This document shows, one piece after another, positions 1-13,672 of a stretch of 14,331 bases of DNA (positions are counted from its first letter, which is position 1; each line of letters begins with the position of its first letter). This DNA is from a virus (lineage: Duplodnaviria > Heunggongvirae > Uroviricota > Caudoviricetes): IMG/VR virus record IMGVR_UViG_2778261418_000001, positions 1 to 14,331 of that record; one strand, written 5' to 3'. A program made the position numbers and the translations under genes. The notes beneath the pieces were generated by a model. That model was not told the DNA's origin. It saw only the letters and a program-made list of their open reading frames with translations, and did not search any database.

Positions 1-57
1 TTGACTCTTCTTTCACCCCTCAAGCCCCAAGCTCTTTCACCAATGGAGTCTGTCCTC

Positions 58-291
58 TTAAACTGAGCCACACCCCACAACAAACTCGTAGTAATCGCTC
101 CAGTCGATTTTGTTTTTGCCAGCTGCTTTCCAGGCGGTGAATGCACCGTTGTCCAGCGCGAACGACTGACAGTATTCAGCCGCGAGATTGATCTGGCCTG
201 AATGCGCAAAACTGATAAACGCATGTCGCCCTTTCCATGCTCTCATTGCGCACGTATCAGGAGTAATAGGCCCACCGTGGTAGTGAATCAT
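58..291 (-). CDS. hypothetical phage early protein (77 aa)
   Basis: Complete ORF; its ATG overlaps the stop of the upstream 246-aa gene (ATGA at 290-293). No family recognised. Confidence 0.45.
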   Translation of the reverse strand: MIHYHGGPITPDTCAMRAWKGRHAFISFAHSGQINLAAEYCQSFALDNGAFTAWKAAGKNKIDWSDYYEFVVGCGSV

Positions 292-292
292 C

Positions 293-1033
293 TCACTCTC
301 CTTTGATGCGAATGTCAGCGTCAGACATCATATGCAGATACTCAACTGCATCCTGAACCCATTGACCGCCAATCCCGTAATAGCGATGCGTAATGATGTC
401 GATAGTTACTAACGGGTCTTGTTCGATTAACTTCCGCAGAAACTCTTCCAGGTCACCAGTGCAGTGCTTGATGACAGGAGTTTTCCCAGGATGGCGAACA
501 ACAAGAAACTGATTTCCGACTTCACGGACTTCGTTGCTTTCCAGTTCTGCAATGCGCTTCTCTGCGGATTCCAACGCCGCAACCAATTCGTCTACAGTTC
601 CGGCAGCTTGCAGTGCGTAATCGGTAATAGCCATCTCATGATCAATTTCAGTACCGTTCTCATTCGTTGAGGTGATAGCAAAATAATCAGAGTCGATTTC
701 GTTATCAGCTAAGTGGCGTAGCGTATCGGCAACAAGCCGGCCGTTTTCGATTAGCAGCTTCCCTACCGTAAGCGCAATATCCTCGTTCTCCTGGTCACGG
801 CTTTTGATGTATTGCTGGTTTCTTTCCCGTTCATCCAGTAGTGCCAAAGCAATCTTTGGATTAAAGGCAGCAATAAATTCAGCGTTGTTTTTCAGAACGT
901 GTTGCGCAATGGCCTGACTACTTAGTCGGACCTCATAACCACGTGCGCCACGGTGTGGTTTATATGAGTCCCAGTCTCCCCACGTTGCTTTCTCTGCCGC
1001 CTCACGCAGTGCCTGATAGTCAATCTTGCTCAT
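293..1033 (-). CDS. hypothetical early-left protein, possibly ead/Ea22-like (246 aa)
   Basis: Long ORF, ATGA-coupled to the 174-aa gene upstream. Acidic, with a coiled-coil-looking central segment. Ea22-like is a guess from position and composition. Confidence 0.5.
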   Translation of the reverse strand: MSKIDYQALREAAEKATWGDWDSYKPHRGARGYEVRLSSQAIAQHVLKNNAEFIAAFNPKIALALLDERERNQQYIKSRDQENEDIALTVGKLLIENGRLVADTLRHLADNEIDSDYFAITSTNENGTEIDHEMAITDYALQAAGTVDELVAALESAEKRIAELESNEVREVGNQFLVVRHPGKTPVIKHCTGDLEEFLRKLIEQDPLVTIDIITHRYYGIGGQWVQDAVEYLHMMSDADIRIKGE

Positions 1034-1554
1034 TGGATGACTCCTTTACGAAGCTGTTCTGCGATATCTTCGAGAACGCCATCAGAGAATGAACGGTCAA
1101 AATCGCCTTCCGGCGCATTGGCCATAAACTCAGTAGAGGTAAGAATCATCCGGGCAATATCCGCAGCGTTCTTCGCAGTATCATCAATAAAACCAGCTTT
1201 CCAGGCTGCCAACATTCTGTTCGCCACAAAATAAGCGCCTTCCTTGCGTGCTTCAGTCTTCCCTTCAGCCAGGAAAGCATCGGTGGCAGGGGTCCCTTCA
1301 ACCTTCAGCCCTATAGGGGCCAGGTAATCCTTCAGACCAGCATTCTCAGCAGTCAGCGCCGCGCATTTAGCCTCAAGGTTATCAATCGTGATTCCAGCAG
1401 AACGACACTCCCGCAACGCCGTTTCCAGTTTTGATTCAAGTTCACCGAACTTACGCACCAGATATTCAGCGTTTGTTTCGTTAACCTTTAAATCTCGTGG
1501 GATGCATTTACCTTTCAGAAATCCATCCATCTCAATTAGTGTCATTTGTTTCAT
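1030..1554 (-). CDS. hypothetical early-left protein (174 aa)
   Basis: ORF with ATGA overlap to the preceding small gene (1551-1554). Ala/Glu-rich, coiled-coil-like centre. Function unknown. Confidence 0.5.
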
Positions 1555-1715
1555 TTCTTCCCACTCCGCAACATCGCATTCAGATATTTGTTGTCATTAA
1601 CAGAACCGAAACTCTTTCTCTTAAGTAATTCCTCTCTCGATGGCATTGGCTTTACGCGTTGGCGAATAATCATTTCTGCCGGAAGAATGCCGGGATTGTA
1701 TGCAAGTCCTCTCAT
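1551..1715 (-). CDS. small hypothetical protein (54 aa; start refined from the 104-aa track ORF)
   Basis: The track ORF 1551..1865 overlaps the 97-aa gene in another frame. An internal ATG at 1715 has a GAGGA Shine-Dalgarno 7 nt upstream. Basic C-terminus. Confidence 0.35.
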
Positions 1716-1725
1716 TGTAAATTCC

Positions 1726-2019
1726 TCAGTCATTACTGATAGCGCCATAGCGTGAGCGGTAATTACGCAGGCGCGGGTCAATTTCAGGGAAGTGGGTATA
1801 TGTGGCTTTACGGAATGGTCGGATTGATGTCTGGTAAATTCGCTCGCGTTCTTCTTTCTCTGCAAGCCATATACAGTGGCGAAATTCCTTTTCCTCTTTC
1901 GTTTCCTGCGGTAGCGACATTATCCGATCGTAGTTTTTCCTGAATTTATCCAGCACCTCCGATACGGAATTGCCGGAACAGCGGCGCGGGTCATCCGCAC
2001 CATACAGAGGCGCTGGCAT
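1726..2019 (-). CDS. hypothetical protein (97 aa); possibly Abc2-like anti-RecBCD, by position and size only
   Basis: ATG at 2019 with AAGGA 7-8 nt upstream. Sits just downstream of the erf/ssb module, where P22 carries abc2. Assignment not confirmed by sequence. Confidence 0.5.
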
Positions 2020-2042
2020 AATGGAATCCTTATTTTTCTAAA

Positions 2043-2426
2043 TCAGAATGGGATGGAATCGTCGTATACAGGAGTGTTCTGCTGGTTACTACTTTGCTGA
2101 TGTTGGCTGTTTCCTGAGGTTGCAAATCCAATCTTTGCATTCAGTAATTCAAGAGTGATTGATTGACCATTTTGCCCATGATAAACATCAACCCTGATGT
2201 TTTCTCCGGTAATTTCTACAATGCCACCTTCAACAAGAACACTACGGTAGTAATCCGCTTGCGCTCCCGGCTTGGCAAATACAACGGCGCTGTAGTTTGT
2301 CCATTCTTTCTTTTTTGTCTGGCGATCGTAATACTGAACGCCAGCACGGATGTTGAATCCGATATTTTCCCCGGCCTGAAACTCTCTTGCGGGCTTGTTT
2401 AGTCTTACAGTAATCGAATGTGCCAT
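2043..2426 (-). CDS. ssb: phage single-stranded DNA-binding protein (127 aa from internal ATG)
   Basis: C-terminus ends DDSIPF, the classic SSB acidic tail, after a Gln/Ser-rich linker. ATG at 2426 overlaps the erf stop (TAATG). The 30-residue N-terminal extension in the track ORF lies inside erf. Confidence 0.7.
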   Translation of the reverse strand: MAHSITVRLNKPAREFQAGENIGFNIRAGVQYYDRQTKKKEWTNYSAVVFAKPGAQADYYRSVLVEGGIVEITGENIRVDVYHGQNGQSITLELLNAKIGFATSGNSQHQQSSNQQNTPVYDDSIPF

Positions 2427-3031
2427 TAAGCAGCCGCTCCTTCTAATTCGTCTCGTCTGATGTTGTAAACGTCCTGCGCTTTGTGCTGCTCCGGTGTTCC
2501 TTCGAGCATCTTCCACGCTTTGGCGAACGCCTGTTTAAGATCTTCCACGGTGTTTTTTTGCATTGCTGCGTCAGTGAATGCTTTTAGAACCTGTTCAGGT
2601 GTAGGTGATGGTTTTGATTGCTTTGCTGCTGCGTTCTGCTGATGTTTATGTTCGTCGGTATCTGCATCTTTCGCATCATCAATGCCGAACAAACCATTGA
2701 GGCAATACTTGCGTGCATAAGAGCTTGTAGCTCCCGTAACTTGTGCAGAATCCATTCCTTTCTTGCTTTCTTCCTCTCGTGCAAGAGCAGTTGCCGTATG
2801 ACTGTTTTCGCCATCGGTAATAGTTGCCGTGGCTTTCACGTAATACCGATCACCAATCAACACAACTTCATCGCTGATTGATAAAAACAGGCCATTCAGT
2901 AACGGCTTAACGCCTTCAAGAATGTCTTCGCAGCTTCTGTATTTATATTTTCCGAATGAGTTGTACTGATTCTTTGGCGCGTTCAGATTCTCCTGAATGG
3001 CTGCCAGTCTTGCGTAAAATTCTTTGCTCAT
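2426..3031 (-). CDS. erf: single-strand annealing recombinase, ERF-family candidate
   Basis: From MSKEFYARL the protein matches P22 Erf as recalled from memory, in both sequence and ~200-aa size. Position matches P22 (downstream of cIII/kil). The upstream TTG start has no RBS. Confidence 0.65.
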   Translation of the reverse strand: MSKEFYARLAAIQENLNAPKNQYNSFGKYKYRSCEDILEGVKPLLNGLFLSISDEVVLIGDRYYVKATATITDGENSHTATALAREEESKKGMDSAQVTGATSSYARKYCLNGLFGIDDAKDADTDEHKHQQNAAAKQSKPSPTPEQVLKAFTDAAMQKNTVEDLKQAFAKAWKMLEGTPEQHKAQDVYNIRRDELEGAAA

Positions 3032-3132
3032 ATGATTGTTCTCAGAATGGACATGGCCCAAGGAAATAACGCTGATTTAATACTTCGACTCGGGACAAAT
3101 TAAGGCATACCCGCATTCCTTCGCGGTCACCA

Positions 3133-3291
3133 TTATGGCGATACCAGAGAGCTTTCTGCGTGTACATGCGTCTCTGTAACTTGCTCTCCTTCACTGTGGT
3201 TGCAAGTGACATGAATATCTCCTTCGTTACCGATTAATTCTTTCATCTGACGAATGAATTCTTCGTCTGACCAGTTATCTGTAAAACTCAT
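3133..3291 (-). CDS. small protein (52 aa) in the kil position
   Basis: ATG at 3291 overlaps the cIII stop (ATGA). Lambda and P22 have kil immediately downstream of cIII. No sequence confirmation. Confidence 0.35.
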   Translation of the reverse strand: MSFTDNWSDEEFIRQMKELIGNEGDIHVTCNHSEGEQVTETHVHAESSLVSP

Positions 3292-3458
3292 GGACGGCCT
3301 TGTTGTTTCAAAATATCCCAAAGCTTTTCGAGCAAGCTTTTCATTCTTGGTTGTTTAAAGTCTGCTCCGGTTAAAATGTTTTTTCGTGAATGCTGTACCG
3401 ATAAAATCGGGTTGAAAGGGCGAACCGATGCCGCCCCTGCAATAGCGAACTGCTGCAT
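3288..3458 (-). CDS. cIII: CIII-like protein (56 aa), inhibitor of FtsH-mediated CII degradation
   Basis: Not in the ORF track. ATG at 3458 with AGAAGGAG Shine-Dalgarno. Translation MQQFAIAGAASVRPFNPILSVQHSRKNILTGADFKQPRMKSLLEKLWDILKQQGRP resembles lambda CIII (MQYAIAGW... / ...WKRLIDILNQPG). Confidence 0.65.
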   Translation of the reverse strand: MQQFAIAGAASVRPFNPILSVQHSRKNILTGADFKQPRMKSLLEKLWDILKQQGRP

Positions 3459-3534
3459 AGGATGCTCCTTCTGTTTGATTGCATAACGAAAAACGCCTCG
3501 AGTGAAGCGTTATTGGTATGCGGTAACGCCGCGC

Positions 3535-3903
3535 TCAGGCGGCTTTGATAGTCATATCATCTGAATCAAATATTCCTGATGTATCGATATCGGTAATTCT
3601 TATTCCTTCGCTACCATCCATTGTAGGCCATCCTTCCTGACCATTTCCATCATTCCAGTCGAACTCACACACAACACCATATGCATTTAAGTCGCTTGAA
3701 ATTGCTATAAGCAGAGCATGTTGCGCCAGCATGATTAATACAGCATTTAATACAGAGCCGTGTTTATTGAGTCGGTATTCAGAGTCTGACCAGAAATTAT
3801 TAATCTGGTGAAGTTTTTCCTCTGTCATTACGTCATGGTCGATTTCAATTTCTATTGATGCTTTCCAGTCGTAATCAATGATGTATTTTTTGATGTTTGA
3901 CAT
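3535..3903 (-). CDS. hypothetical protein (122 aa), acidic
   Basis: ATG at 3903 with GAGGA RBS. Lies in the sieB/ral/ea10-equivalent variable slot. No family recognised. Confidence 0.55.
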   Translation of the reverse strand: MSNIKKYIIDYDWKASIEIEIDHDVMTEEKLHQINNFWSDSEYRLNKHGSVLNAVLIMLAQHALLIAISSDLNAYGVVCEFDWNDGNGQEGWPTMDGSEGIRITDIDTSGIFDSDDMTIKAA

Positions 3904-3921
3904 CTATTCATATCCTCACAG

Positions 3922-3948
3922 AAAAAAATCGCCCTCACATCGGAGGGC
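3922..3948 (-). terminator. intrinsic terminator-like hairpin just upstream of the 122-aa gene
   Basis: On the minus strand: GCCCTC-cgatgt-GAGGGC followed by GATTTTTTT, about 19 nt before the RBS. Confidence 0.5.
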
Positions 3949-4052
3949 AAAGAAGATTTCCAATAATCAGAACAAGTCGGCTCCTGTTTAGTTACGAGCG
4001 ACATTGCTCCGTGTATTCACTCGTTGGAATGAATACACAGTGCTTATTTGTA

Positions 4053-4523
4053 CTAATAAAATACCCAATTTTCTGTTTCTTGGTTGTGTCCAAAGTTATA
4101 TTCAATATCTGGTGTTGATGTATCAATATTTTTCATCCCATCAACAAGAGTTGATACAACAGCCAAATCTTGTTTTATTCTCATTAAATGGTATTTCTTC
4201 CGGCGCAATAAACTTTCAATAGCAAGTTTCTTCGTTGGGAATGCAAAAGATCTTTCTGCATTTTTTGCTACTTTCTTAATTGCATATCTATTTCTCCTTT
4301 GTTTCCATTCCTGTAACCACTGATTTGGTGCTGGTTTAAAATCAACAATCCAATGCGCAGGAACCAACCATGCATAATGCTCTGTCTGATGAAAAGCTAT
4401 ATATTGAAGTGCGAATATTTTTATCCCATCTTCTTCAACTGTCGCCTGGAATCTCCAGAAAACAGGCATTCCATCATGTTCAGTTTCTGATTCAGGAAAA
4501 GGTACGCTCCATGATTTTGTCAT
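4053..4523 (-). CDS. hypothetical protein (156 aa)
   Basis: ATG at 4523 with GAGGTG Shine-Dalgarno. The RBS overlaps the stop of the N-like remnant, as expected for the native gene downstream of N. No family recognised. Confidence 0.55.
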   Translation of the reverse strand: MTKSWSVPFPESETEHDGMPVFWRFQATVEEDGIKIFALQYIAFHQTEHYAWLVPAHWIVDFKPAPNQWLQEWKQRRNRYAIKKVAKNAERSFAFPTKKLAIESLLRRKKYHLMRIKQDLAVVSTLVDGMKNIDTSTPDIEYNFGHNQETENWVFY

Positions 4524-4531
4524 ATCTCACC

Positions 4532-4624
4532 TCAAATAAGTGGTTTGCTGCCTAATTTCATTTTCTGGCGACCAACACAAGTCACACCCATTTCACTGCG
4601 TGGCTTGCTGTAGTAAATACGGTT
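4532..4624 (-). pseudogene. N: 3' remnant of an N-type antiterminator gene (C-terminal ~30 codons only)
   Basis: Minus-strand frame translates to NRIYYSKPRSEMGVTCVGRQKMKLGSKPLI-stop, matching the conserved C-terminus of lambda N (YSKPGERGITCSGRQKIKGKSIPLI). The frame is closed by TAA at 4673-4675, has no start codon, and differs from the upstream 147-aa ORF frame. Confidence 0.6.
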
Positions 4625-4630
4625 ATTTAT

Positions 4631-4657
4631 GTAATAAAAAACCCGCCTTAGCGGGTT
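4631..4657 (-). terminator. intrinsic terminator after the 147-aa gene
   Basis: Minus strand: AACCCGC-taag-GCGGGTT followed by TTTTTATT, directly after the 147-aa stop codon. Confidence 0.6.
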
Positions 4658-4658
4658 A

Positions 4659-5102
4659 TTATTTCTTTGGATTTAGCTTTTCCATGTTCTCTGCGATCGT
4701 ACCTATTCTTGACCTTATTGTTGGAATATCAATTCCTCTCTGTATGTCTACATTTAAAGACATAAGCTCTCTGCTCCATCCTGCGATCGCATCGTGAAAT
4801 TGTCTTGCCCTGCTTGCTTGTCTACGTCTGCTGCTTTCAAGCTCTGTAAGCATTTGCTTTGCTTCGATCTGAGACTTGCCTTGCCCAACTCCCAATGCAT
4901 CGATTGCACATTGCCTCATCTCTGCTTTTATCAAAGGGTGAAGATTTTCAGCGCCAATAAAAATTACCTCGTCTATGCTTTTAAAAAGCAGAAGGCAATC
5001 AGTAACAACTTTGGTTCTTTTATCATCACACCTTACCTCTACCGAAGGTACGCCGCCATATTGCTTAACTCTCATTGCCGTGTAAACTGTAGCACTCTTC
5101 AA
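4659..5102 (-). CDS. hypothetical protein (147 aa) occupying the N position; TTG start
   Basis: AAGGAGG Shine-Dalgarno 5 nt before TTG at 5102. First gene after pL. Internal Arg-rich stretch SSRRRQASRARQ. No resemblance to lambda, 21 or P22 N. Confidence 0.55.
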   Translation of the reverse strand: MKSATVYTAMRVKQYGGVPSVEVRCDDKRTKVVTDCLLLFKSIDEVIFIGAENLHPLIKAEMRQCAIDALGVGQGKSQIEAKQMLTELESSRRRQASRARQFHDAIAGWSRELMSLNVDIQRGIDIPTIRSRIGTIAENMEKLNPKK

Positions 5103-5130
5103 ATCAGCCTCCTTTTTCTTTTTCTATATC

Positions 5131-5170
5131 AAAAAGCTGCTTTGCTTTTTGTGACTAAAAGCAAAAAAGC
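5131..5170 (-). promoter_or_regulatory. large hairpin plus U-run in the pL leader, preceded by a boxA-like motif
   Basis: Minus-strand RNA: GCUUUUUUGCUUUU-agucac-AAAAGCAAAGCAGC (14-bp stem, one mismatch) then UUUUU, ending ~17 nt before the RBS. TGCTCATTA lies ~10 nt 5' of the hairpin (boxA consensus CGCTCTTTA). Confidence 0.45.
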
Positions 5171-5259
5171 CTTCTCGCTAATGAGCAGCATTGCCGTTCA
5201 TCCTGAACCCGCCGCGCTCCCGACGCATGGTTTAATGTCGCGCCGTTCGACATGGCTTA

Positions 5260-5301
5260 ACTATACCCAAAGCTATTATTGCTGTAAATAGCTATAGTTA
5301 T
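5260..5301 (-). promoter_or_regulatory. OL/pL: leftward early promoter with overlapping repressor operators
   Basis: Minus strand -35 TTTACA (plus 5283-5288), 17-bp spacer, -10 TATAGT (plus 5260-5265). Operator-like sites ATACC-caaa-GCTAT (5263-5276) and ATAGC-tata-GTTAT (5288-5301), same architecture as OR. Confidence 0.6.
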
Positions 5302-5390
5302 AAAATAACTCCTTTGGTTATTTAGTCATTGATATCTAATGTAATTTATTTTTCTTGTATGTGAGATTTGGTGTTTTTTGGGCAATAAAA

Positions 5391-5409
5391 AACCCGCAAA
5401 AAGCGGGTT
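5391..5409 (-). terminator. intrinsic terminator downstream of cI
   Basis: Stem AACCCGC/GCGGGTT with 5-nt loop. On the minus strand it is followed by TTTTATT. 19 bp past the cI stop. Confidence 0.6.
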
Positions 5410-5427
5410 TGTTGTGGTGTGATGAGG

Positions 5428-6159
5428 TTAGTAGTCAACTACAGACCACCAGAAGATTCTTCCGATGATCTCGATATCGCTTAGATTCTTTTCTTCTTGT
5501 GGGTATTCCAGTGAGTTAAAGCTTCTAATGCTTACCTTGTCAGGCCCTGATCGAAAGAGAATCTTAATGCGTTTCCAACCGTTCTCGTTAATGGCGTAAA
5601 TCTTTCCGTCAACTATTTTCTTATCGTTGGTGTTAACAGCAACTGTTGTTCCATCAGGAATGTTTGGCTCCATGCTGTTGCCACGAGCCGGAAAACAAAC
5701 AACCCCGCTTCCATCACTGTTCGCGCCAACTCTGCGAAGGGTTGATTTGGAGAAGCGCAACATAAAGCCGTTGTGATCTTCATCAATCACCCGACCATCC
5801 CCGCATGCAAACTCAATATCTTTAAGGTAAGGAACTTCAACTTCATCACCTCTTAAAGGCGTTCCTCCATCCCATGGGTCCAAATATCCCCACGTGCTTT
5901 CATGAGGAATAGAAGATTTTGGATTATAAGGTTCAACTCCCTCATCACGCATTGGCCCAGTCCCATCGGAAAGCCATTCCGTACGAACTCCAAGCACTTT
6001 TGATATTTCAAAAAGTTTGCGCGTATTGCGTGTTTTTCCAGACGTAAGTTTCCAGACGCTTGGCTGAGACATGCCAACAGCATTGCCAAGAGAAGCCTGA
6101 GTAAACCCAGCCTGATCCATCGCGTATGTAAGCCTTTGAGAAAAAGTATCTAGTTTCAT
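5428..6159 (-). CDS. cI: CI-type prophage repressor (HTH N-domain plus LexA-like S24 autopeptidase C-domain)
   Basis: N-terminal XRE-type HTH (QASLGNAVGMSQPSVWKL). C-terminal S24 fold with the Ser motif GNSMEP and Lys in KRIK. Divergent from cro, flanked by operators; mRNA appears leaderless from pRM. Confidence 0.85.
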   Translation of the reverse strand: MKLDTFSQRLTYAMDQAGFTQASLGNAVGMSQPSVWKLTSGKTRNTRKLFEISKVLGVRTEWLSDGTGPMRDEGVEPYNPKSSIPHESTWGYLDPWDGGTPLRGDEVEVPYLKDIEFACGDGRVIDEDHNGFMLRFSKSTLRRVGANSDGSGVVCFPARGNSMEPNIPDGTTVAVNTNDKKIVDGKIYAINENGWKRIKILFRSGPDKVSIRSFNSLEYPQEEKNLSDIEIIGRIFWWSVVDY

Positions 6160-6165
6160 TCGTAC

Positions 6166-6236
6166 AACCTATAGCTACAGCTATTATTAGTCAAATACCT
6201 AAAGCTATTTACTTTCTGAATAGCTTTGGCTATTAT
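6166..6236. promoter_or_regulatory. OR region: three operators overlapping divergent pRM and pR
   Basis: Sites ATAGC-taca-GCTAT (6171-6184), ATACC-taaa-GCTAT (6195-6208), AATAGC-tttg-GCTATT (6218-6233). pR: -35 TTTACT (6208-6213), 17 bp, -10 TATTAT (6231-6236). pRM on minus: -35 TTGACT (6189-6194), 17 bp, -10 TAGGTT (6166-6171), with the cI ATG ~7 nt downstream. Confidence 0.65.
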
Positions 6237-6267
6237 TCTGATTGTGAATTCAGCAGGAGTTATTTTT

Positions 6268-6498
6268 ATGGTCAACGAGGCTATTAAAGCGGCTATTGAC
6301 TCAGTAGGAAGTCAGCAAAAGTTAGCTGATGCCTGCGGTGTTAAGCAGCCGTCTGTATGGGCTTGGTTGCATGGGAAGAAAAGGGTATCCGCTGAAAATG
6401 CCAAGCGCATTGAAATGGCTACCAATGGAAGCGTCCCTGCATACCTGATTCGCCCTGATTTATCCGCTTTGTTCCCCAATCCGAACAAAGCAGCTTAA
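6268..6498 (+). CDS. cro: Cro-like repressor (76 aa from ATG 6268)
   Basis: First gene rightward from pR. AGGAG RBS before ATG 6268. HTH QQKLADACGVKQPSVWAWLHGKK. The TTG at 6226 in the track ORF lies inside the operator. Confidence 0.75.
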   Translation: MVNEAIKAAIDSVGSQQKLADACGVKQPSVWAWLHGKKRVSAENAKRIEMATNGSVPAYLIRPDLSALFPNPNKAA

Positions 6499-6617
6499 TA
6501 AAGCAAATTTTTATACCGAACGGCCCGGTATACGGTCGGGTGCCCGGCGTGGTCATGGATGACTGTCAATGGTGCACAATAAAAAACCAAATTATTTACC
6601 TATGGAAATAGTAAGAA

Positions 6618-6914
6618 ATGGAACAAACAAGTTACAGCAAACTATCACAGCGCGACGTTGATCGCGCAGAAACAGATTTACTTATCAACCTGTCAACGCT
6701 TACTCAGCGCGGTCTGGCAAAGATGATTGGCTGTCATGAATCGAAGATAAGCAGAACGGACTGGAGATTTATTGCTTCAGTCTTGTGTGCTTTCGGAATG
6801 GCATCAGACATCAGTCCGATTAGTAGGGCTTTTAAGTATGCGCTTGATGGAATCACAAAGAAAAAATCCCCGGCCGCCACCGAGGATTTTAAGCAAATTG
6901 ATATGCAATTCTGA
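6618..6914 (+). CDS. cII: CII-like transcriptional activator
   Basis: 98 aa. C-terminal KKKSPAATEDFKQIDMQF aligns with lambda CII (KKRPAATERSEQIQMEF), with the HTH centrally. Position after cro. Confidence 0.75.
   Translation: MEQTSYSKLSQRDVDRAETDLLINLSTLTQRGLAKMIGCHESKISRTDWRFIASVLCAFGMASDISPISRAFKYALDGITKKKSPAATEDFKQIDMQF
6627..6640 (-). promoter_or_regulatory. putative pRE CII-binding repeat (TTGC-N6-TTGT) inside the 5' end of cII
   Basis: Minus strand reads TTGCtgtaacTTGT. Lambda pRE has TTGC-N6-TTGC flanking its -35 in the same place and orientation. Confidence 0.35.
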
Positions 6915-6946
6915 GGGAATTACTGGATCAATCCACAGGAGTAATT

Positions 6947-7591
6947 ATGACATACGAAAATGACAAATTCCAGGTTCTGAAGAGCATGAAGGTTCCAGAT
7001 GATTTTAAATCAAATGGCTTTGTTTATGTGCTTTCGAATGAGTGCATGCCAGGAATTTATAAGATTGGGATGACTAAGCATTCACCAGAAGTTAGGGCTA
7101 AAGAAATTTCAGCCTCTACTGGCGTTCCTAAGCCATTTAAGGTGATAGCAGCCTTTCATTCAAATAATCCCGCATCAGATGAAAAACTCATTCATAAAGC
7201 CTTTGCAAAAGAGAGGCTTAGTGATAATCGAGAGTTTTTCAAGCTTGAAGATAATGATCTTTCTGAATCTCTAAATGAAATAAGGGCGCTGGTTGGCCCT
7301 GAAAGAAATGGCGAGACGGCAGAATACGCAATTTACGACTCATTCATTTCTTTTCGCCATGAAAATGAGCTTGATCTTAATGAGGAGCTTATAGAGCAAG
7401 GTCTGGGTAGTGTAGTTGGTCATCTTCCTGCGGTGAAAAATTTCCTTATTCGCGCCGGAATTGATTACGCGAAGCAACTGATAAGCAAATATAACTCATC
7501 GATAGTTATTAATACAGATGGCAGTGTGGTGATGGTTAAGTCTCTTGAAGCCCAATGCTTTGATGCGGAGGTTGGAAATGAGCCTTGCTGA
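6947..7591 (+). CDS. T5orf172 (GIY-YIG-like) domain protein; moron between cII and O
   Basis: GGAG RBS. N-terminal GFVYVLSNECMPGIYKIGMTKHSPEVRAKEI ... REFFKL matches the T5orf172/MUG113 GIY-YIG-related pattern. Lambda has cII directly followed by O. Confidence 0.65.
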   Translation: MTYENDKFQVLKSMKVPDDFKSNGFVYVLSNECMPGIYKIGMTKHSPEVRAKEISASTGVPKPFKVIAAFHSNNPASDEKLIHKAFAKERLSDNREFFKLEDNDLSESLNEIRALVGPERNGETAEYAIYDSFISFRHENELDLNEELIEQGLGSVVGHLPAVKNFLIRAGIDYAKQLISKYNSSIVINTDGSVVMVKSLEAQCFDAEVGNEPC

Positions 7592-8420
7592 AGTATTTTA
7601 CCTGCCGAAGAGTGAACCTGTTGAACAGGAGCGAAGAGTGGCTGATATCGATGATGGTTACACCAGATTCGCTAACGAGCTGCTGGAAGCTATCGCAAGT
7701 GCCGATTTAACCGCTCGCCAGTTGAAAGTTATGCTGGCCTACGTCCGGAAAACATATGGATTCAATAAGAAAACAGATCGAATAGCCGATGAGCAAATTG
7801 CTCAGTTAACAGGACTGTCAAGGCAGAATGTTAACAAGGCTAAAAAAGAACTGATTTCAATGAATTGCCTGTTTATGGATGGAAATCAAATCGGTGTAAA
7901 CAGTGAGGTATCTGCGTGGCAATTCAGCAAGTGTCTCCAAGTTAGCAACTTTGTCTCGAAGTTAGAGACAAAAAATGTCTCCAAATTAGAGACACTCAAT
8001 GTCTCGAAGTTAGAGACACACAAAAGACATTCTTTAAAGACAAAAGAAAATATTAATAAACCCCCTATATCCCCCAAAAAAGTTTCTCAGAAGTTCGACC
8101 CGCTAGAAACAGAGTTGCCTGATTGGTTATCAGCAGAAACATGGTTGTCGTGGGTTACCTATCGCAAGGAGATAGGTAAGTCGATCAAGTCTAAGCAAAG
8201 TGTCACTCAGGCTATCAACGTTCTAAGCAGAAGTCTGGAGAAGGGATATACACCTGAAGAAATTATAAACCAGAGCATCGCCAGTGGTTGGCAGGGGATT
8301 TTTGAGCCCAAGACTCCAAAGGGGAAATCTCAACCGAGGCCGCAGCATCGAGCTATGCAGGAAAACTTTGCCACCAAAGATTACGGACAAACTGAAATGC
8401 CTTCATGGGCGCAGGAGTGA
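7578..8420 (+). CDS. O: replication initiator O (lambda O family)
   Basis: N-terminal RRVADIDDGYTRFANELLEA...LKVMLAYVRKTYGFNK aligns with lambda O (RNVADLDDGYARLSNMLLEA...FKVLLAILRKTYGWNK). Iterons lie inside the ORF. Start set at ATG 7578 (GGAGG RBS) rather than 7545. Confidence 0.85.
   Translation: MSLAEVFYLPKSEPVEQERRVADIDDGYTRFANELLEAIASADLTARQLKVMLAYVRKTYGFNKKTDRIADEQIAQLTGLSRQNVNKAKKELISMNCLFMDGNQIGVNSEVSAWQFSKCLQVSNFVSKLETKNVSKLETLNVSKLETHKRHSLKTKENINKPPISPKKVSQKFDPLETELPDWLSAETWLSWVTYRKEIGKSIKSKQSVTQAINVLSRSLEKGYTPEEIINQSIASGWQGIFEPKTPKGKSQPRPQHRAMQENFATKDYGQTEMPSWAQE
7932..8075. repeat. lambdoid replication origin: four iterons plus AT-rich region inside O
   Basis: Iterons at 7932, 7952, 7976 and 8000, each ~19 bp (TGTCTCgaagttaGAGACA, with internal dyad TGTCTC/GAGACA); the first is degenerate. 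Followed by AT-rich 8020-8075. Confidence 0.8.
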
Positions 8421-8422
8421 AC

Positions 8423-9268
8423 ATGACGCTGGATGAAAAGATCTCCCAACTGGAGAAAAAACTTGCAGAATTGAGTTCTCCGCCAATTGCTATCGAGCAT
8501 ACAGCTGTAGAAATTGGCACTGGCATCTGTGAAAAACATGGTGAGTTTGAGCAGCGTAACCGTTACTCGACTGGGCCAATTAAGTTTGCCTCAAGACCTA
8601 GCGAATGCCCGGAATGCATGAGAGATGAGCTTATTCGGCTACAGGCAGAGAAGATTAAAATCGACGAAGAATCACGTAAGCGCAATGTCGAGTTTCTGTT
8701 GAATAATCTTGATATTCCTGAACGATTCAAGGGTTGCACACTACAGAACTACGAGCCAGTCAACGACGATGCAAAGAGAGTGCTCAGGGTGTGTCAGGCA
8801 TACGCCAGCAAATGGCCTGAGAGGTTACAGAAAGGCGGTGGGCTGGTTATGTGTGGAAAGCCTGGTACTGGAAAGAATCATCTTGCACTGGCTATCGCCC
8901 GGCACGCAATTACGGAACATCAAAGCTCAGCTATTTTCACAACGGCGCTGAAAATTGCCAGAGAATATAAATCAACATGGTCGAAAAACTCCACCCGCAC
9001 AGAGGATGAAGTGATCCGACAGTTCACTAAACCTGACCTGCTAATTATCGATGAGGTTGGTGTGCAGTTTGGAAGCGAGGCGGAAAAGATGATCATGTTC
9101 GAAATCATCAACACCCGCTACGAGCGCATGAAGCCAACAATCCTGATTAGCAACCAGAGCAAAGATGAACTGTCTGCATTCATTGGTGAGCGTGTTATTG
9201 ACAGGATGAATGATGGCGGCGGGTGCACTCTTGCGTTTACATGGGATAGTTACAGGAGCAGATCGTGA
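8423..9268 (+). CDS. DnaC-like helicase loader (IstB-type AAA+ ATPase) with N-terminal zinc-ribbon-like Cys motif
   Basis: Walker A GKPGTGKNHLA and Walker B LLIIDEVG. CxxH...CPEC motif near the N-terminus. AGGAG RBS before ATG 8423. Directly downstream of O. Confidence 0.85.
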   Translation: MTLDEKISQLEKKLAELSSPPIAIEHTAVEIGTGICEKHGEFEQRNRYSTGPIKFASRPSECPECMRDELIRLQAEKIKIDEESRKRNVEFLLNNLDIPERFKGCTLQNYEPVNDDAKRVLRVCQAYASKWPERLQKGGGLVMCGKPGTGKNHLALAIARHAITEHQSSAIFTTALKIAREYKSTWSKNSTRTEDEVIRQFTKPDLLIIDEVGVQFGSEAEKMIMFEIINTRYERMKPTILISNQSKDELSAFIGERVIDRMNDGGGCTLAFTWDSYRSRS

Positions 9269-9555
9269 CTGGAAAAGAAATCATCCTGGAATATCTGAAA
9301 ACTCATGAACAATTCTCCCCACATGAATTAGCACTGATCACCGGAATACCAAATAACAGAATCGCTCAAGCAGCAAGGCATATGGTGAAACAAGGACATT
9401 TGAGTGTTGTTGAGCGTAAGTGGAAGACGGTTATTTATGCAAAACGCAAAGTGAAGAAGGAGCCAATTAAAAGAAATCCAGATGGTACGGGGTGGGGATG
9501 TGCAAATCCAATGACGGCGTTTATTAATAGGGCGCTTATGGAGGTAAGGCAATGA
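9265..9555 (+). CDS. ren: Ren-like protein (96 aa)
   Basis: GTG start overlapping the loader stop (GTGA), GGAG RBS. MTGKEIILEYLKTHEQFSPHELALITG... aligns with lambda Ren (MTGKEAIIHYLGTHNSFCAPDVAALTG...), same length and position. Confidence 0.7.
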   Translation: MTGKEIILEYLKTHEQFSPHELALITGIPNNRIAQAARHMVKQGHLSVVERKWKTVIYAKRKVKKEPIKRNPDGTGWGCANPMTAFINRALMEVRQ

Positions 9556-9580
9556 CCATCTACATCACTGAGCTAATAAC

Positions 9581-9613
9581 AGGCCTGCTGGTAATCGCAG
9601 GCCTTTTTATTTG
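9581..9613 (+). terminator. tR2-like intrinsic terminator between ren and ninB
   Basis: AGGCCTGC-tggtaatc-GCAGGCCT followed by TTTTATTTG. Confidence 0.6.
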
Positions 9614-9628
9614 GGGGAGAGGGAAGTC

Positions 9629-10069
9629 ATGAAAAAACTAACCTTTGAAATTCGATCCCCAGCACATCAGCAAAACGCTATTCACGCGGTACAGCAAATT
9701 CTTCCAGACCCAACCAAACCAATCGTAGTGACCATCCAGGAACGCAACCGCAGCTTAGACCAAAATCGGAAGCTTTGGGCTTGCTTAGGTGACGTCTCTC
9801 GTCAGGTTGAATGGCATGGTCGCTGGCTGGATGCAGAAAGCTGGAAGTGTGTGTTTACCGCAGCATTAAAGCAGCAGGACGTTGTTCCTAACCTTGCCGG
9901 GAATGGCTTTGTGGTAATAGGCCAGTCAACCAGCAGGATGCGTGTAAGCGAATTTGCGGAGCTATTAGAGCTTATACAGGCATTCGGTACAGAGCGTGGC
10001 GTTAAGTGGTCAGACGAAGCGCGACTGGCTCTCGAATGGAAAGCGCGATGGGGAGATCGGGCTGCATGA
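9629..10069 (+). CDS. ninB: NinB recombination protein
   Basis: From MKKLTFEIRSPAHQQNAIHAVQQILPDPTKP... the protein is essentially identical to lambda NinB as recalled from memory. Confidence 0.9.
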   Translation: MKKLTFEIRSPAHQQNAIHAVQQILPDPTKPIVVTIQERNRSLDQNRKLWACLGDVSRQVEWHGRWLDAESWKCVFTAALKQQDVVPNLAGNGFVVIGQSTSRMRVSEFAELLELIQAFGTERGVKWSDEARLALEWKARWGDRAA

Positions 10070-10590
10070 CTATCAAATCAAATACGCCAGCGTCAGATAG
10101 GTATCGGCTTATTGAGGATTATCTGTATTTAGACGGAGATACAGTCAGGTACAAAAAGGACTCGCTAAAACACCCCAACCACAGCCACCGGGCCGGAGAT
10201 GAAATTAAAACATCGATAAATGGATCTGGGTATAGACAGGTGTGTTTTGCAGGCATTCAGATGTTTGTTCACGTAGTTGTTTTTGCGCTGCACAACAAAA
10301 GAATGCCATTGAAAAATATTGACCATATTAACGGAAACAGGCTGGACAATTCCCCAAAAAATCTTAGGGAGGCAAGCCGGATAGCAAACAGCCGAAATCA
10401 GAAAACTAAGTGCAATAGCCGTTCTGGAATAAAAAATGTTTTATGGAACAAGCAAAAAAATAAATGGGCCGTTCAAGTGCGCACAGATTTTGGCCGGTTG
10501 CATTTTGGGTTCTATGAAGATCTTGAGCTTGCTGGTTTGGTTGCCAGTGAGGCTATCAACAAATATCACGGACAATATGCGAGGGTTTAA
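10066..10590 (+). CDS. HNH endonuclease with AP2-like DNA-binding domain (free-standing homing-endonuclease type)
   Basis: ATG 10066 overlaps the ninB stop (ATGA). HNH motif IDHINGNRLDNSPKNLR. C-terminal AP2-like WNKQKNKWAVQV...GFYEDLELAG. Inserted between ninB and the next nin gene. Confidence 0.8.
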   Translation: MTIKSNTPASDRYRLIEDYLYLDGDTVRYKKDSLKHPNHSHRAGDEIKTSINGSGYRQVCFAGIQMFVHVVVFALHNKRMPLKNIDHINGNRLDNSPKNLREASRIANSRNQKTKCNSRSGIKNVLWNKQKNKWAVQVRTDFGRLHFGFYEDLELAGLVASEAINKYHGQYARV

Positions 10591-11120
10591 TGATTAAGCA
10601 TAAATCAGAAACACCAAAAGAAGTTAGAGACTGCTGGCAAACGCCGCTTTGGCTTTTTGATGCACTGGATATTGAGTTTGGATTCTGGCTGGATTCGGCA
10701 GCGAGCGACAAAAATGCTCTGTGCGCTCACTGGCTAACTGAGGCCGACGACGCACTCAATTCTGAGTGGATAAGCCACGGTGCAATCTGGAATAACCCAC
10801 CGTACAGCAATATCAGGCCGTGGGTGGAAAAAGCCGCTGAGCAGTGCATACAACAGCGACAGACGGTAGTGATGCTTGTGCCAGAGGATATGTCTGTCGG
10901 ATGGTTCAGCAAGGCTCTGGAGAGTGTTGACGAAGTTCGCATTATCACTGATGGACGGATTAATTTTATCGAACCATCGACAGGGCTGGAGAAGAAGGGA
11001 AACAGTAAAGGCTCCATGCTGCTGATTTGGCGACCGTTCATCAGTCCTCGACGGATGTTTACTACCGTATCCAAAGCGGCATTGATGGCGATCGGGCAGG
11101 GCGTCAGGAGGGCGGCATGA
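10590..11120 (+). CDS. dam: phage Dam-type DNA N6-adenine methyltransferase
   Basis: Catalytic NPPY motif (IWNNPPYSN), size and nin-region position typical of phage orphan N6-adenine methyltransferases. TAATG overlap with the HNH gene. Confidence 0.8.
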
Positions 11121-11299
11121 GACGACAGCGACGAAGTATCACCGACATAATCTGCGAAAACTGCAAATACCTTCCAACGAAGCGCTCCAGAAATAAACGC
11201 AAGCAAATCCCAAAAGAATCTGACGTAAAAACCTTCAATTACACGGCTCACCTGTGGGATATCCGGTGGCTTAGAGAACGTGCGAGGAAAACAAGGTGA
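11117..11299 (+). CDS. ninE: NinE
   Basis: [60 protein letters not shown] is near-identical to lambda NinE as recalled. ATGA overlap with dam. Confidence 0.85.
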
Positions 11300-11466
11300 T
11301 TGACCCAAATCGAAGTTACGAACAAGAAAGCGTCGAGCGGGCTTTAACGTGCGCTAACTGCGGTCAGAAGCTGCATTTTCTGGAAGTTCACGTGTGCTCC
11401 GATTGCTGCGCAGAACTGATGAGCGATCCGAATAGCTCAATGTACGAGGAAGAAGACGATGAATGA
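11296..11466 (+). CDS. ninF: NinF (56 aa, GTG start)
   Basis: Not in the ORF track. GTG at 11296 overlaps the ninE stop. Translation [56 protein letters not shown] matches lambda NinF. Confidence 0.8.
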
Positions 11467-12181
11467 GTTAATAAATGGCAATGCCATCAAAATGACAAGC
11501 ATTGAAATCGCTGAGTTGGTGGGTAAGCGTCATGACAATGTGAAACGTACCATCGAAACGCTGGCTAAAAATGGTGTTATCCGGCTTCCTCAAATTGAGG
11601 TTTCCGAAAGAATCAATAACTTAGGGTTCAATGTTCAGTACGAGCATTACGTCTTCGAAGGCGAACAAGGTAAGCGAGATAGTATTGTTGTTGTTGCCCA
11701 GTTGTCGCCGGAATTCACCGCTCGTCTTGTTGACCGTTGGCGAGAGCTTGAAGAAGCTGCGGTTAATATCCCAAAAACGCTACCAGAAGCGTTGCGCCTT
11801 GCTGCTGATCTTGCTGAGCAGAAAATGCAACTGGAAAACCAGCTTGCAATTGCCGCACCTAAAGTTGAGTTTGCCGATCGCGTTGGCGAGGCCAGCGGAA
11901 TTTTGATTGGAAACTTTGCAAAGGTTGTCGGTATTGGTCCAAACAAACTGTTTGCGTGGATGCGCGATCACAAAATCCTTATTGCTTCAGGTTCCCGGCG
12001 CAATGTGCCAATGCAGGAATATATGGATCGCGGCTATTTCACAGTGAAAGAAACAGCGGTCAACACAAATCACGGAATACAGATATCGTTCACCACAAAA
12101 ATCACCGGGCGTGGTCAACAGTGGCTGACCAGAAAGCTGCTCGATAACGGAATGCTGAAAGTAACAGGGGAGGCTGCTTAA
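11459..12181 (+). CDS. antirepressor-like protein (Rha-type N-domain plus KilA-C/Ant C-domain)
   Basis: N-terminus (MTSIEIAELVGKRHDNVKRTIETL) resembles the Rha regulatory domain. The C-terminal half (FAKVVGIGPNKLFAWMRDHKIL...) resembles the KilA-C antirepressor domain. Inserted between ninF and ybcO. Confidence 0.7.
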   Translation: MNELINGNAIKMTSIEIAELVGKRHDNVKRTIETLAKNGVIRLPQIEVSERINNLGFNVQYEHYVFEGEQGKRDSIVVVAQLSPEFTARLVDRWRELEEAAVNIPKTLPEALRLAADLAEQKMQLENQLAIAAPKVEFADRVGEASGILIGNFAKVVGIGPNKLFAWMRDHKILIASGSRRNVPMQEYMDRGYFTVKETAVNTNHGIQISFTTKITGRGQQWLTRKLLDNGMLKVTGEAA

Positions 12182-12471
12182 TGGCTAACCTACGCAAAGA
12201 AGCACGCGGCAGAGAATGCCAGGTACGTATTTACGGAATATGCAATGGTAATCCTGAAACTACAGTTCTGGCACATTACCGGATGGCTGGAATTTGCGGA
12301 ACGGGAATGAAGCCTGACGACCTGATCGGCGCATGGGCTTGTAGCGCGTGTCACGATGAAATCGACCGACGCACCCATAACCTCGACAACAAAGACGCCA
12401 GACTTTACCACCTGGAAGGCGTGATCAGGACGCAGGCGATACTGCTGAAGGAGGGGAAGATTAAGCCATGA
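12181..12471 (+). CDS. ybcO: YbcO-like DUF1364 protein (Cys-rich, putative nuclease)
   Basis: 96 aa with a conserved Cys pattern (CQVRIYGICNG...CSACHDEIDRR). Same size and position (before rusA) as DLP12 YbcO. Confidence 0.65.
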   Translation: MANLRKEARGRECQVRIYGICNGNPETTVLAHYRMAGICGTGMKPDDLIGAWACSACHDEIDRRTHNLDNKDARLYHLEGVIRTQAILLKEGKIKP

Positions 12472-12830
12472 ACGAATATCAGTTTGTGCTTCCATACCCG
12501 CCGTCGGTGAACACCTACTGGCGAAGACGGGGAAGCCAATACTACATCAGCGATAAAGGCCAGAAATACCGAAAAGACGTTCAGCAAATCATCCGCCAAC
12601 TTAAGTTAGACATTTTCACCAAATCACGACTCCGCATCAAAGTCATCGCAGACGTTCCAGACTCCCGCCGCCGCGACCTCGACAACATCCTGAAAGGTTT
12701 ACTCGACTCCCTTATCCACGCCGGATTCGCGGAAGACGACGAGCAATTCGATGACATTCGCGTAATTCGTGGTGTGAAAGTACCAGGTGGACGGCTTGGA
12801 GTAAAAATCACCGAACTGGAGAACGTATGA
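12468..12830 (+). CDS. rusA: RusA Holliday-junction resolvase
   Basis: 120 aa. Motifs LPYPPSVNTYW and RRRDLDN and C-terminal GGRLGVKITEL align with E. coli RusA (LPWPPSNNRYY, RRRDLDN, GGRLELTITEM). Confidence 0.85.
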   Translation: MNEYQFVLPYPPSVNTYWRRRGSQYYISDKGQKYRKDVQQIIRQLKLDIFTKSRLRIKVIADVPDSRRRDLDNILKGLLDSLIHAGFAEDDEQFDDIRVIRGVKVPGGRLGVKITELENV

Positions 12831-13015
12831 ACGCCACAATTCAAACGATACCAGAGCTTCTTATCCAGACACGAGGTAATCAGACCGAAGTGGCGAGGAT
12901 GCTTTCCTGCGCAAGAGGAACAGTGCTCAAGTACAACCGAGACAGAAAAGGCGAGCGTCACGTAATAGTTAACGGCGTCCTGATGGTCACGCCAGGCAAA
13001 AAGGGAAGACGATGA
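12827..13015 (+). CDS. ninH: NinH-like small DNA-binding protein
   Basis: IPELLIQTRGNQTEVARMLSCARGTVLKYNRDRKGERHVIVNGVLMV aligns with lambda NinH (IPDMLVEAYGNQTEVARRLKCSRGTVRKYVDDKDGKMHAIVNDVLMV). Confidence 0.75.
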   Translation: MNATIQTIPELLIQTRGNQTEVARMLSCARGTVLKYNRDRKGERHVIVNGVLMVTPGKKGRR

Positions 13016-13530
13016 GCATAAGAGAACTAAACCTCACCAAAGAACAGCACGAGTGGCTGAATGGCTGGCTTGAACTGTGGGGCGCATGGGTTTATTCAGG
13101 TCGTCTGGAAAAGCGTATGAGCAGCGTAATAGCGAAGTTCATGGAGAGCGTAGAGCCGGGAAGAGTTATGACAAGGCCAATGTGCAATGATGATGATGGA
13201 ATGTTGATTTCTCAGGTCGTCGATTCCGTCATGTACATTGACAAAAAAGCCTTTGGCATCCTCCTCAGCTACTACGCTCATGGTTCATCTAAGCGAGCAA
13301 TTGCATCCTACTATCACGCGACTGCAAAGCCACGCAAGATGTGTGGACGTGGTGGCGAGGGATGGAGAAAACCTTCACTGGCAACCTGTAGAAACGAAAT
13401 TGACGACATCCTGAAAGCGTCATTATTTGTTTTATACCAGCCGATGCAAAATGCTTTCAAAATGCGTAAACGTGTTGAGAAAGTTAAGCATATTGCTGTT
13501 AAAAGCCTTGACATGCAATTATCCATTTAG
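13012..13530 (+). CDS. Q: late-gene antiterminator Q (QuuD/phage 21-82 type, not lambda-Q type)
   Basis: Pattern LELWGAW ... RPMCNDDDGML ... LLSYYAHG parallels DLP12 QuuD (ERWGAW ... RPQCCDDDAMI ... LLVDYYVVG) as recalled. Last gene before the putative late promoter. Confidence 0.8.
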   Translation: MSIRELNLTKEQHEWLNGWLELWGAWVYSGRLEKRMSSVIAKFMESVEPGRVMTRPMCNDDDGMLISQVVDSVMYIDKKAFGILLSYYAHGSSKRAIASYYHATAKPRKMCGRGGEGWRKPSLATCRNEIDDILKASLFVLYQPMQNAFKMRKRVEKVKHIAVKSLDMQLSI

Positions 13531-13537
13531 CCATAAT
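13508..13537 (+). promoter_or_regulatory. putative late promoter pR' overlapping the 3' end of Q
   Basis: TTGACA (13508-13513), 18-bp spacer, CATAAT (13532-13537). The hairpin with U-run ~10 nt downstream would give a short terminated transcript, as in lambdoid pR'/tR'. Confidence 0.5.
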
Positions 13538-13548
13538 TAGAAGGTAAG

Positions 13549-13588: not shown

Positions 13589-13592
13589 ATTT

Positions 13593-13667: not shown

Positions 13668-13672
13668 AATAT

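Follow-up and report, generated by a model that had tools for sequence, protein, structure and literature searches.

The stretch of DNA analysed here (hereafter the window) comprises 14,331 nucleotides (nt) of a Caudoviricetes virus (IMG/VR record IMGVR_UViG_2778261418_000001, positions 1 to 14,331) and corresponds to the immunity and early region of a lambdoid phage. Our study concerns the start of its early-left operon, read on the minus strand, and more precisely two elements: the leader that follows the early-left promoter pL, and the first gene of the operon, a 147-amino-acid (aa) open reading frame (ORF) hereafter named gene X. Coordinates are window positions and, unless the plus strand is indicated, the features described lie on the minus strand. 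In the direction of transcription, the locus starts with pL, a sigma-70-like promoter (promoter scan, 10 of 12 matches) composed of a -35 box TTTACA (5288..5283), a 17-nt spacer and a -10 box TATAGT (5265..5260). At most 10 nt after the -10 box begins an RNA element (5183..5253) that matches the putL antiterminator of phage HK022. It is followed by an A/U-rich hairpin (5131..5175), hereafter hairpin A, by a Shine-Dalgarno sequence AAGGAGG (5114..5108) located 5 nt before a TTG codon, and by gene X itself (5102..4659). A tL1-like intrinsic terminator identified by the terminator scan closes gene X (4634..4657; AACCCGCUAAGGCGGGUU then UUUUAUU; hairpin of -11.4 kcal/mol over 18 nt). Further downstream are found a relic of an N gene (4532..4624) and the next early-left gene (4053..4523), a member of PHROG 1636, which in Stx-type and P22-type phages stands directly 3' of N. 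Gene X is the first ORF after pL, as a first-pass annotation of this DNA, made from its letters, had proposed.

The leader is nearly identical to that of HK022. Between 5259 and 5122, a megablast search of phage genomes gave 96.4% identity over 138 nt with HK022, HK75 and the HK022/lambda hybrid O276, at the site where the HK022 and O276 records annotate the pL -10 box and "putL: antiterminator RNA"; the -10 box of the window aligns with the annotated -10 box of HK022. A 68-nt probe (5250-5183) is 97% identical to HK022/O276 putL (67-nt alignment) and 100% identical in E. coli prophages. Across 10 sequence variants, the putL core is 97-100% conserved. In a pairwise alignment, the near-identity between the window and HK022 extends from the transcript start to ...GATATAGAA and breaks sharply 13 nt before the ribosome-binding site (RBS) of gene X. 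Beyond the break, HK022 continues with the nun promoter and nun, and the window with the RBS and gene X.

In HK022, the nascent put RNA adopts a two-stem fold and attaches to the RNA polymerase that is making it, at the beta' zinc-binding domain; the polymerase modified in this way resists pausing and termination without any phage protein (PMC9378689). The HK022 numbering was fixed by the landmarks of that study, namely AACCAT, a -10-like sequence occupying +23..+28, the bases G35/G36 where the stems meet, and U68 in the lower part of stem II. Transferred to the window, these HK022 landmarks (PMC9378689) give the numbering used here and would place the transcript start near A5253 and the end of stem II at C5183. 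The two differences between the window and HK022 inside putL are a compensatory swap of A-U to U-A at the base of stem I. When the putL and putR variants are considered together, three of the five pairs of the basal helix of stem I are changed on both sides; the rest of the element is invariant or was misaligned by MAFFT, so that the comparison bears on stem I. A second element, putR, is located on the plus strand between cro (6226-6498) and cII (6618-6914); it spans about 6514-6577 and, in its core, differs from the annotated O276/HK022 putR by a single mismatch. A scan of the whole window at Rfam gathering thresholds returned two tRNAs only and no match for putL or putR.

Judged by this near-identity, the leader is an HK022-type putL, and the regulatory arrangement is already-known biology. 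Because putL and a matching putR are present and no N protein was found among the early-left ORFs of the window, the phage is predicted to be put-dependent. In addition, since HK022 put acts without a phage protein, antitermination would reside in the put RNA and not in gene X. The first-pass annotation had described a nut- or put-like leader. This is literally putL, but the wrong elements had been credited: the active two-stem RNA, at about 5253-5183, lies upstream of the interval that was quoted. The boxA-like motif then proposed, TGCTCATTA, is found at 5179..5187, just outside that interval. Stem II ends at C72 in HK022 numbering, that is at window position 5183, so that TGCTCATTA corresponds to the last five bases of stem II followed by four linker bases. 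In the ten put leaders compared, the five bases TGCTC are invariant and the next four read ATTA, ACAA, AATG, ACTA or GCAA. From its position and from this comparison, TGCTCATTA is not a boxA, and the 9-mer is not conserved.

Downstream of stem II, PMC9378689 places the backtracking pause that put suppresses in HK022 at 21 nt past this stem, the stalled RNAs ending at C94/U95. Because the sequence is here identical to HK022, the pause is tentatively mapped to 5161/5160, in the UUUUUUGC stretch (U6-G-C-U, 5160..5168), which belongs to the 5' arm of hairpin A. The core stem of this hairpin (5170-5136, from G5170 to C5136) contains 13 pairs, one U.C mismatch and a 7-nt loop, and is directly followed by the run U5135-U5131; upstream, the bases AGAAG (5175-5171) may extend the stem by pairing with the U run. 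The minimum free energy fold has 18 base pairs (A5175-U5131) and an energy of -17 kcal/mol (z = -2.6), and 2 of 200 shuffled sequences were as stable. The U run is separated from the RBS of gene X by 16 nt. The hairpin had previously been delimited exactly (5131-5170), as a 14-bp stem ending about 17 nt before the RBS; its interpretation as an attenuator stands less well, because the feature on which it depends, the U run, is not conserved.

Hairpin A is 100% identical in HK022, where it precedes nun, and in E. coli prophages. Among the homologous loci (designated below by handles beginning with L), L026 carries a compensatory change from C-G to U-A that keeps the stem, its U.C mismatch is repaired, and its U run is broken (UUUAUG). 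In L028, L030, L034 and L040, an unrelated hairpin, B, is found at the same position (-14 to -21 kcal/mol) without a U run, and in L028 it precedes a nun homologue. A third unrelated hairpin, C, also without a U run, is present in Erwinia phage phiEt88 (L046, 2440-2490; -16.5 kcal/mol). Hairpins A, B and C all start 7-9 nt past put stem II, and the U run is seen in type A only. Because HK022 has hairpin A before nun and unrelated hairpins replace it elsewhere, the hairpin belongs to the put module rather than to gene X. We infer that what put phages have in common here is a stable stem, placed 7-9 nt past stem II, rather than termination. It can also be observed that the loop of hairpin B contains a U4 run about 21 nt past stem II, roughly at the HK022 pause position.

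Gene X comprises 147 codons, starts with TTG and ends with a double stop, TAA TAA (4661..4656). Its product (16.5 kDa, isoelectric point (pI) 9.4) matches PHROG 13686, a family without assigned function, over residues 1-147 of 147 (E = 4.2e-92). A search of 5.8 billion proteins yielded 15 clusters of homologues with 64-99% identity, originating from E. coli, Salmonella, Cronobacter, Enterobacter and phage metagenomes. An exhaustive search of 1.84 billion representatives with a hidden Markov model retrieved 4 clusters only, all of them members of the gene X family or fragments. The gene is also found in 30 viral contigs, and the family is represented in four cultured phages: Wanchaivirus PDP110P2, Salmonella MG40, Erwinia phiEt88 and Flyfo siphovirus Tbat2_3. 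All full-length copies are exactly 147 aa long, without indels. The start codon is at one position in all lineages, as TTG, ATG or GTG, each behind a GGAG-type RBS, which confirms the TTG start in the window. Divergence at non-synonymous sites (pN 0.04-0.28) is low as compared to that at synonymous sites (pS 0.44-0.99, these sites being saturated), and dN/dS is about 0.03-0.12 where computable. Gene X is a genuine gene under strong purifying selection. Hence, the first-pass call of a 147-aa ORF with a TTG start and an AAGGAGG RBS at this place is borne out by the conserved length and the selection. On the other strand, a 165-aa ORF with a GTG start (4794-5291, plus strand) lies opposite gene X and the put leader; it was considered as a gene and is almost certainly spurious, selection acting on the X frame.

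In some genomes the gene is lost. It is frameshifted to 89 aa in L010 (3029-3298) and L038, which correspond to E. coli OkiPb01689 and one viral contig. E. coli PEC122 (L044, 2501-2744) shares the immunity region, putL, the hairpin and the RBS with the window, and its gene X is deleted beyond codon 3. These cases indicate that gene X is dispensable for prophage carriage. In PEC122, the deletion fuses the start of X in frame to an N tail, giving a 27-aa ORF that RefSeq names "transcriptional antitermination N peptide".

The AlphaFold2 (AF2) model of the gene X protein (predicted local distance difference test (pLDDT) 86, predicted template modelling score (pTM) 0.59) contains a four-strand beta sheet (residues 5-49) and helices at 56-72, 76-121 and 126-142. 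The central helix, 46 residues long, carries the arginine-rich stretch SSRRRQASRARQ (residues 90-101), which had been likened to an RNA-binding arginine-rich motif. The stretch is present, but of its five arginines only three, R92, R94 and R100, are conserved, and a divergent clade reads SSRIRQASIARQF. For this reason, it is better described as a conserved basic patch on a structured helix than as a motif of the N/Nun type. Scans of gene X against Pfam (E <= 1), NCBIfam and PADLOC gave no matches, a profile search against PDB sequences gave nothing below E = 1, and a Foldseek search of the model against BFVD and PDB gave nothing at E <= 0.001. The confident homology to a characterised family that structure prediction with Foldseek and profile searches might have revealed was not found by either route. 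Scattered Foldseek chains suggestive of a double-stranded RNA-binding domain, at E > 0.7, were not retained as evidence. A relationship to N was rejected, in agreement with the first-pass annotation, by hhalign against an N alignment (probability 0.2%) and by the lack of a Pfam match (PF25694, PF11438); a relationship to Nun was rejected likewise (BLASTP against HK022 Nun, E = 30). Text searches by accession and by PHROG turned up no paper on the gene X family.

Two shortened relatives were recovered from metagenomes. P0018 (L041, 1195-1491) is a 98-aa ORF in which the arginine-rich motif of a lambda-type N (PF11438, E = 1e-9) is joined to family residues 49-107. On its 1.7-kb contig, it is preceded by another N 3' end and followed by the usual terminator. 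We considered it as a "Rosetta stone" linking the family to RNA polymerase, and judged it to be probably a deletion artefact of adjacent genes. P0017 (L042, 3225-3545) is a 106-aa relative comprising family residues 1-107 and located outside any pL operon, on a 49-kb metagenomic contig whose genes at this locus encode tail-fibre assembly, tail-fibre and baseplate-wedge proteins and, further downstream, an acyltransferase.

The genomic contexts of gene X are varied. It directly follows putL and hairpin A in the window, in E. coli prophages (L009-L017 and L038, some with HK022 immunity), in L025 and in L026; the relatives with HK022 immunity in which gene X stands in place of nun are L011, L012, L016 and L017. 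In L030, L034, L040 and phiEt88, it follows putL and hairpin B or C, and in L028 it comes after putL and a nun homologue that is 58% identical to HK022 Nun. In other phages, gene X is found 10-85 nt after a complete N, either in the Salmonella MG40-like arrangement (L004, L005, L018-L024 and L039) or behind other N types (L006-L008 and L029; L031-L033 and L035-L037), three types in all. In the Salmonella phages, the gap between N and X is 16 nt. In L027, gene X lies between N and a nun homologue. In the N phages, gene X has no leader of its own. A GC-rich hairpin with a T run follows gene X in nearly all homologous loci. Since gene X is found alongside N, Nun and put in one phage or another, it does not replace N or Nun. 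Two of these arrangements may be noted for themselves: L027 (2532-3808) contains N, gene X and a nun homologue in a row, and L028 (2505-3441) contains putL, a nun homologue and gene X. The presence of N and Nun in one phage is unusual.

The expression of gene X appears to depend on pL. The promoter scan found no promoter-like site between the leader hairpin and the RBS, where 16 nt follow the U run. With regard to the definition of a moron as a gene with its own promoter and its own terminator, gene X has the terminator and no such promoter. pL itself is overlapped by operator-like palindromes (5262-5277 and 5287-5302) that recur in the cI/cro intergenic region at oR (6170-6234), and repeat families D1, D2 and I1-I5 tie the pL site to this region, which contains pR/pRM. 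Because the same repeats recur there, the pL palindromes are taken as operators of the oL/oR type; their consensus is approximately ATAGCTnnAGCTAT, with copies in both the pL and the pR/pRM regions. The corresponding repressor is a cI-type protein of 243 aa (6159..5428; Pfam PF00717 and PF01381, PHROG 4) with a helix-turn-helix (HTH) and an S24 peptidase domain, and represents an immunity type distinct from that of HK022, although the put sites are common to both. Upstream of pL, the cI transcript is closed by an intrinsic terminator identified by the terminator scan (5390..5410; 8-bp stem with 5 GC pairs, then a T run; hairpin of -12.3 kcal/mol). As gene X has no promoter of its own and pL is under operator control, its expression would be expected only after induction or infection, in the lytic cycle rather than in the prophage, and its promoter-proximal slot implies that it would be made in the first minutes.

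Behind the terminator of gene X, the N-gene relic (4532..4624) corresponds to the last 30 codons and the stop of a lambda/Stx-type N, NRIYYSKPRSEMGVTCVGRQKMKLGSKPLI*, and is 98% identical to annotated N 3' ends. It has no start codon and no arginine-rich motif, the N-terminal two thirds of N being absent. Relics of N 3' ends are also observed behind the X terminator in L009-L015, L030-L037 and L040, with two unrelated types of tail (...GRQKMKLGSKPLI and ...CLPEVAIF..VTAR). Their distribution suggests repeated recombination inside N when gene X was exchanged, of which the relics would be the scars.

Taken together, these observations lead us to a reading to which we give a probability of roughly 75%: the locus is the start of an HK022-type, put-dependent early-left operon, the leader hairpin is part of the put module, and gene X encodes an accessory protein outside the antitermination machinery. 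In the mechanism that we propose, the repressor-controlled pL (5260-5288) would fire into putL (~5253-5183), followed by the U-rich pause stretch, the A/U hairpin, the strong RBS, gene X and the GC-rich terminator at 4634-4657. The nascent put RNA would bind the beta' zinc-binding domain of the polymerase and thereby render it resistant to pausing and termination. The hairpin would most likely insulate or stabilise the put fold and act at most as a weak terminator for polymerases that missed put. As for gene X, we tentatively suggest a dispensable accessory gene occupying, like N and Nun, the promoter-proximal slot before the first strong terminator; its product would probably be a basic helical protein that binds a macromolecule of the host or of a competitor, in host takeover or counter-defence, although our confidence in this reading of gene X is low.

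Several points weigh against this reading. The function of put in the window phage is deduced from its near-identity to HK022, and hairpin A, with its U-tract score of 3.98, could be a real terminator in this lineage. Our best guess of gene X as a dispensable early-lytic accessory protein is drawn from position and general protein features only, the AF2 model has a pTM of only 0.59, and no relatives in sequence or fold outside the family were found in our searches. Finally, a role related to transcription could, after all, account for the strict association of X with N, Nun and put.

Other explanations were weighed, the first concerning the leader. Hairpin A may be a genuine intrinsic terminator or attenuator in this lineage that, by halting polymerases unmodified by put, determines how strongly X and the whole operon are expressed, a proposal that we regard as unlikely, yet serious. 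The 13-bp stem has G-C pairs at its base and UUUUU immediately after it, the upstream A/G tract can form pairs with the U run, a feature of many intrinsic terminators, and the sequence is conserved at 100% between HK022 and the E. coli prophages. Its U-tract score is equal to or above those of the two clear terminators of the window. However, the stem is weak as compared to theirs (-10.8 kcal/mol over 36 nt for the core, that is -0.30 against about -0.6 kcal/mol per nt), and the terminator scan of the window did not call it. L026 has a broken U run yet preserves the stem through a compensatory change, and hairpins B and C occupy the same position without a U run. Moreover, every transcript that arrives at this point has just made putL, so most polymerases should resist termination (PMC9378689). 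We consider it very improbable that gene X is itself a non-canonical antiterminator, as the first-pass annotation had envisaged, or an RNA-binding regulator, whose arginine-rich helix would bind the leader hairpin as a nut-like site and control read-through into the operon. On a long predicted helix, the motif ELESSRxRQASxARQF is both conserved and exposed to solvent, the protein is basic, with a pI of 9.4, the gene is always beside N, Nun or put, and P0018 joins the N motif to family residues 49-107. Against this, a complete putL is already present in the leader, and the phage also has putR. The same gene occurs after N, after a nun homologue or between the two without a leader of its own: it accompanies full-length N of three types and then lacks the leader hairpin, with a gap of 16 nt in the Salmonella phages. 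Conversely, HK022 has the hairpin without X, and unrelated hairpins precede X homologues. Only three arginines are conserved, no similarity to N or Nun is seen, X is frameshifted or deleted in some prophages, and P0018, whose 1.7-kb contig has another N 3' end ahead of it, has the look of a product of deletion. The further suggestion that a programmed +1 shift at AAG-AAA-UAA fuses X to the N-like tail, giving a product of about 190 aa that would contain the end of N which binds RNA polymerase, has next to no credibility in our eyes. Starting in the last codons of X, the +1 frame indeed stays open across the terminator, for 44 codons into the N-like tail ...YYSKPRSEMGVTCVGRQKMKLGSKPLI*, in the window and close relatives, and L033 and L036 have an open frame as well, with a different sequence. 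However, neither the frame nor a slippery site is conserved across the homologous loci: single-base differences close the frame in L016, L031, L032 and L035, which are close relatives of open ones, and it is also closed in L030, L037 and L040. The codons before the stop vary (AAG AAA, AAA AAA, AAC AAA or AGA AAA), two consecutive TAA codons and an intrinsic terminator separate X from the tail, and the tail, a recombination relic, is absent in many homologues (L004, L025, L026 and L028).

Two further explanations concern the role of the gene X product, for which the first-pass annotation had also named an exclusion or defence moron or a toxin. The product might be an exclusion or defence protein expressed from the prophage, an analogue of Nun at the nun position that would shield the lysogen from other phages. 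X does occupy the place of nun behind putL and has its own terminator, as morons have, and lambdoid phages are known to concentrate genes for exclusion and anti-exclusion in the region beside N; in MG40, for instance, a P22 gp17-like protein is annotated a few genes downstream. We nevertheless hold this to be improbable. A promoter would have no room in the 16 nt that separate the U run from the RBS, and none was found, whereas nun in HK022 has its own annotated promoter; the operator repeats overlap pL, and a strong terminator precedes it. In addition, X coexists with nun homologues in L027 and L028, and no PADLOC match was obtained. We attach a similarly small probability to gene X acting as a promoter-proximal factor on the host elongation or termination apparatus, or on early phage RNA, as a modulator beside N or put and not as an antiterminator. 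This would explain why X is only found in the N/Nun/put slot, upstream of the first terminator and with three antitermination strategies, and also why the exposed helix R-x-R-Q-A-S-x-A-R-Q-F is conserved.

Among 5426 complete E. coli genomes, 38 contain a put-type leader and 21-24 contain gene X, and put-dependent lambdoid prophages of this type are relatively common in E. coli O111 and in animal isolates. It is worthwhile for annotators and scanning programs to recognise putL and putR, such a leader not being one to read as a nut site or an attenuator. Gene X defines an orphan family with a fixed length of 147 aa, very strong purifying selection, no relatives and a constant slot between the early-left promoter and the first terminator. 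It is a cheap and well-posed target for study, since members of the family are carried by phages in culture (MG40, phiEt88 and PDP110P2). If X does act on transcription or on host defence, it would represent a new early function of lambdoid phages.

The early-left ORFs of the window are gene X, PHROG 1636, PHROG 646, cIII, Arf-like, Erf, SSB, Abc2 and others. The right arm contains cro, cII, O-like and DnaC-like replication genes, Ren-like, HNH, Ant, RusA, Q and two tRNAs. The latter, tRNA-Asn (GTT) and tRNA-Thr (TGT), lie at 13593-13748 on the plus strand, directly 3' of the Q-like antiterminator gene (13012-13530).

The closest known system is that of HK022, and likewise of HK75 and O276. 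The window shares with it a near-identical putL directly after the pL start, an identical linker, U-rich pause stretch and A/U hairpin, a putR between cro and cII, the absence of an N gene and a GC hairpin terminator behind the first gene. It differs from HK022 by its 243-aa HTH/S24 repressor with its own operators, which gives it another immunity type, and by gene X, which replaces nun and its private promoter. X has no similarity to HK022 Nun, which is characterised by an N-terminal arginine-rich motif and a C-terminal KKW.

The comparison with lambda N and nutL is more distant. In both cases, a first gene after pL occupies the same slot, a tL1-type terminator lies behind it and a hairpin is present in the leader; the HK022 record X16093 (Oberto et al. 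1989) annotates this very hairpin as "putative nutL equivalent". In contrast to lambda, the window lacks an N protein, an arginine-rich motif at the N terminus and a conserved boxA, and X is unrelated to N. Hairpin A, with 13-18 bp and a 7-nt loop, is also unlike boxB, with its 5 bp and pentaloop, and the arginine stretch of X is located at residues 92-100, inside a long predicted helix, whereas that of N is N-terminal.

On the basis of position and general knowledge, gene X can finally be compared with accessory genes of the early-left operon. Lambda ral and sieB and P22 gene 17 are small, non-essential, mosaic genes transcribed from pL that vary between related phages, and X is swapped in and out likewise. 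It differs from these genes in that it shows no similarity to them in sequence or fold and that its place, the N/Nun slot, comes before the first strong terminator and not after it. Within PHROG 13686, the window protein is an ordinary member, in no way different from the rest of its family.

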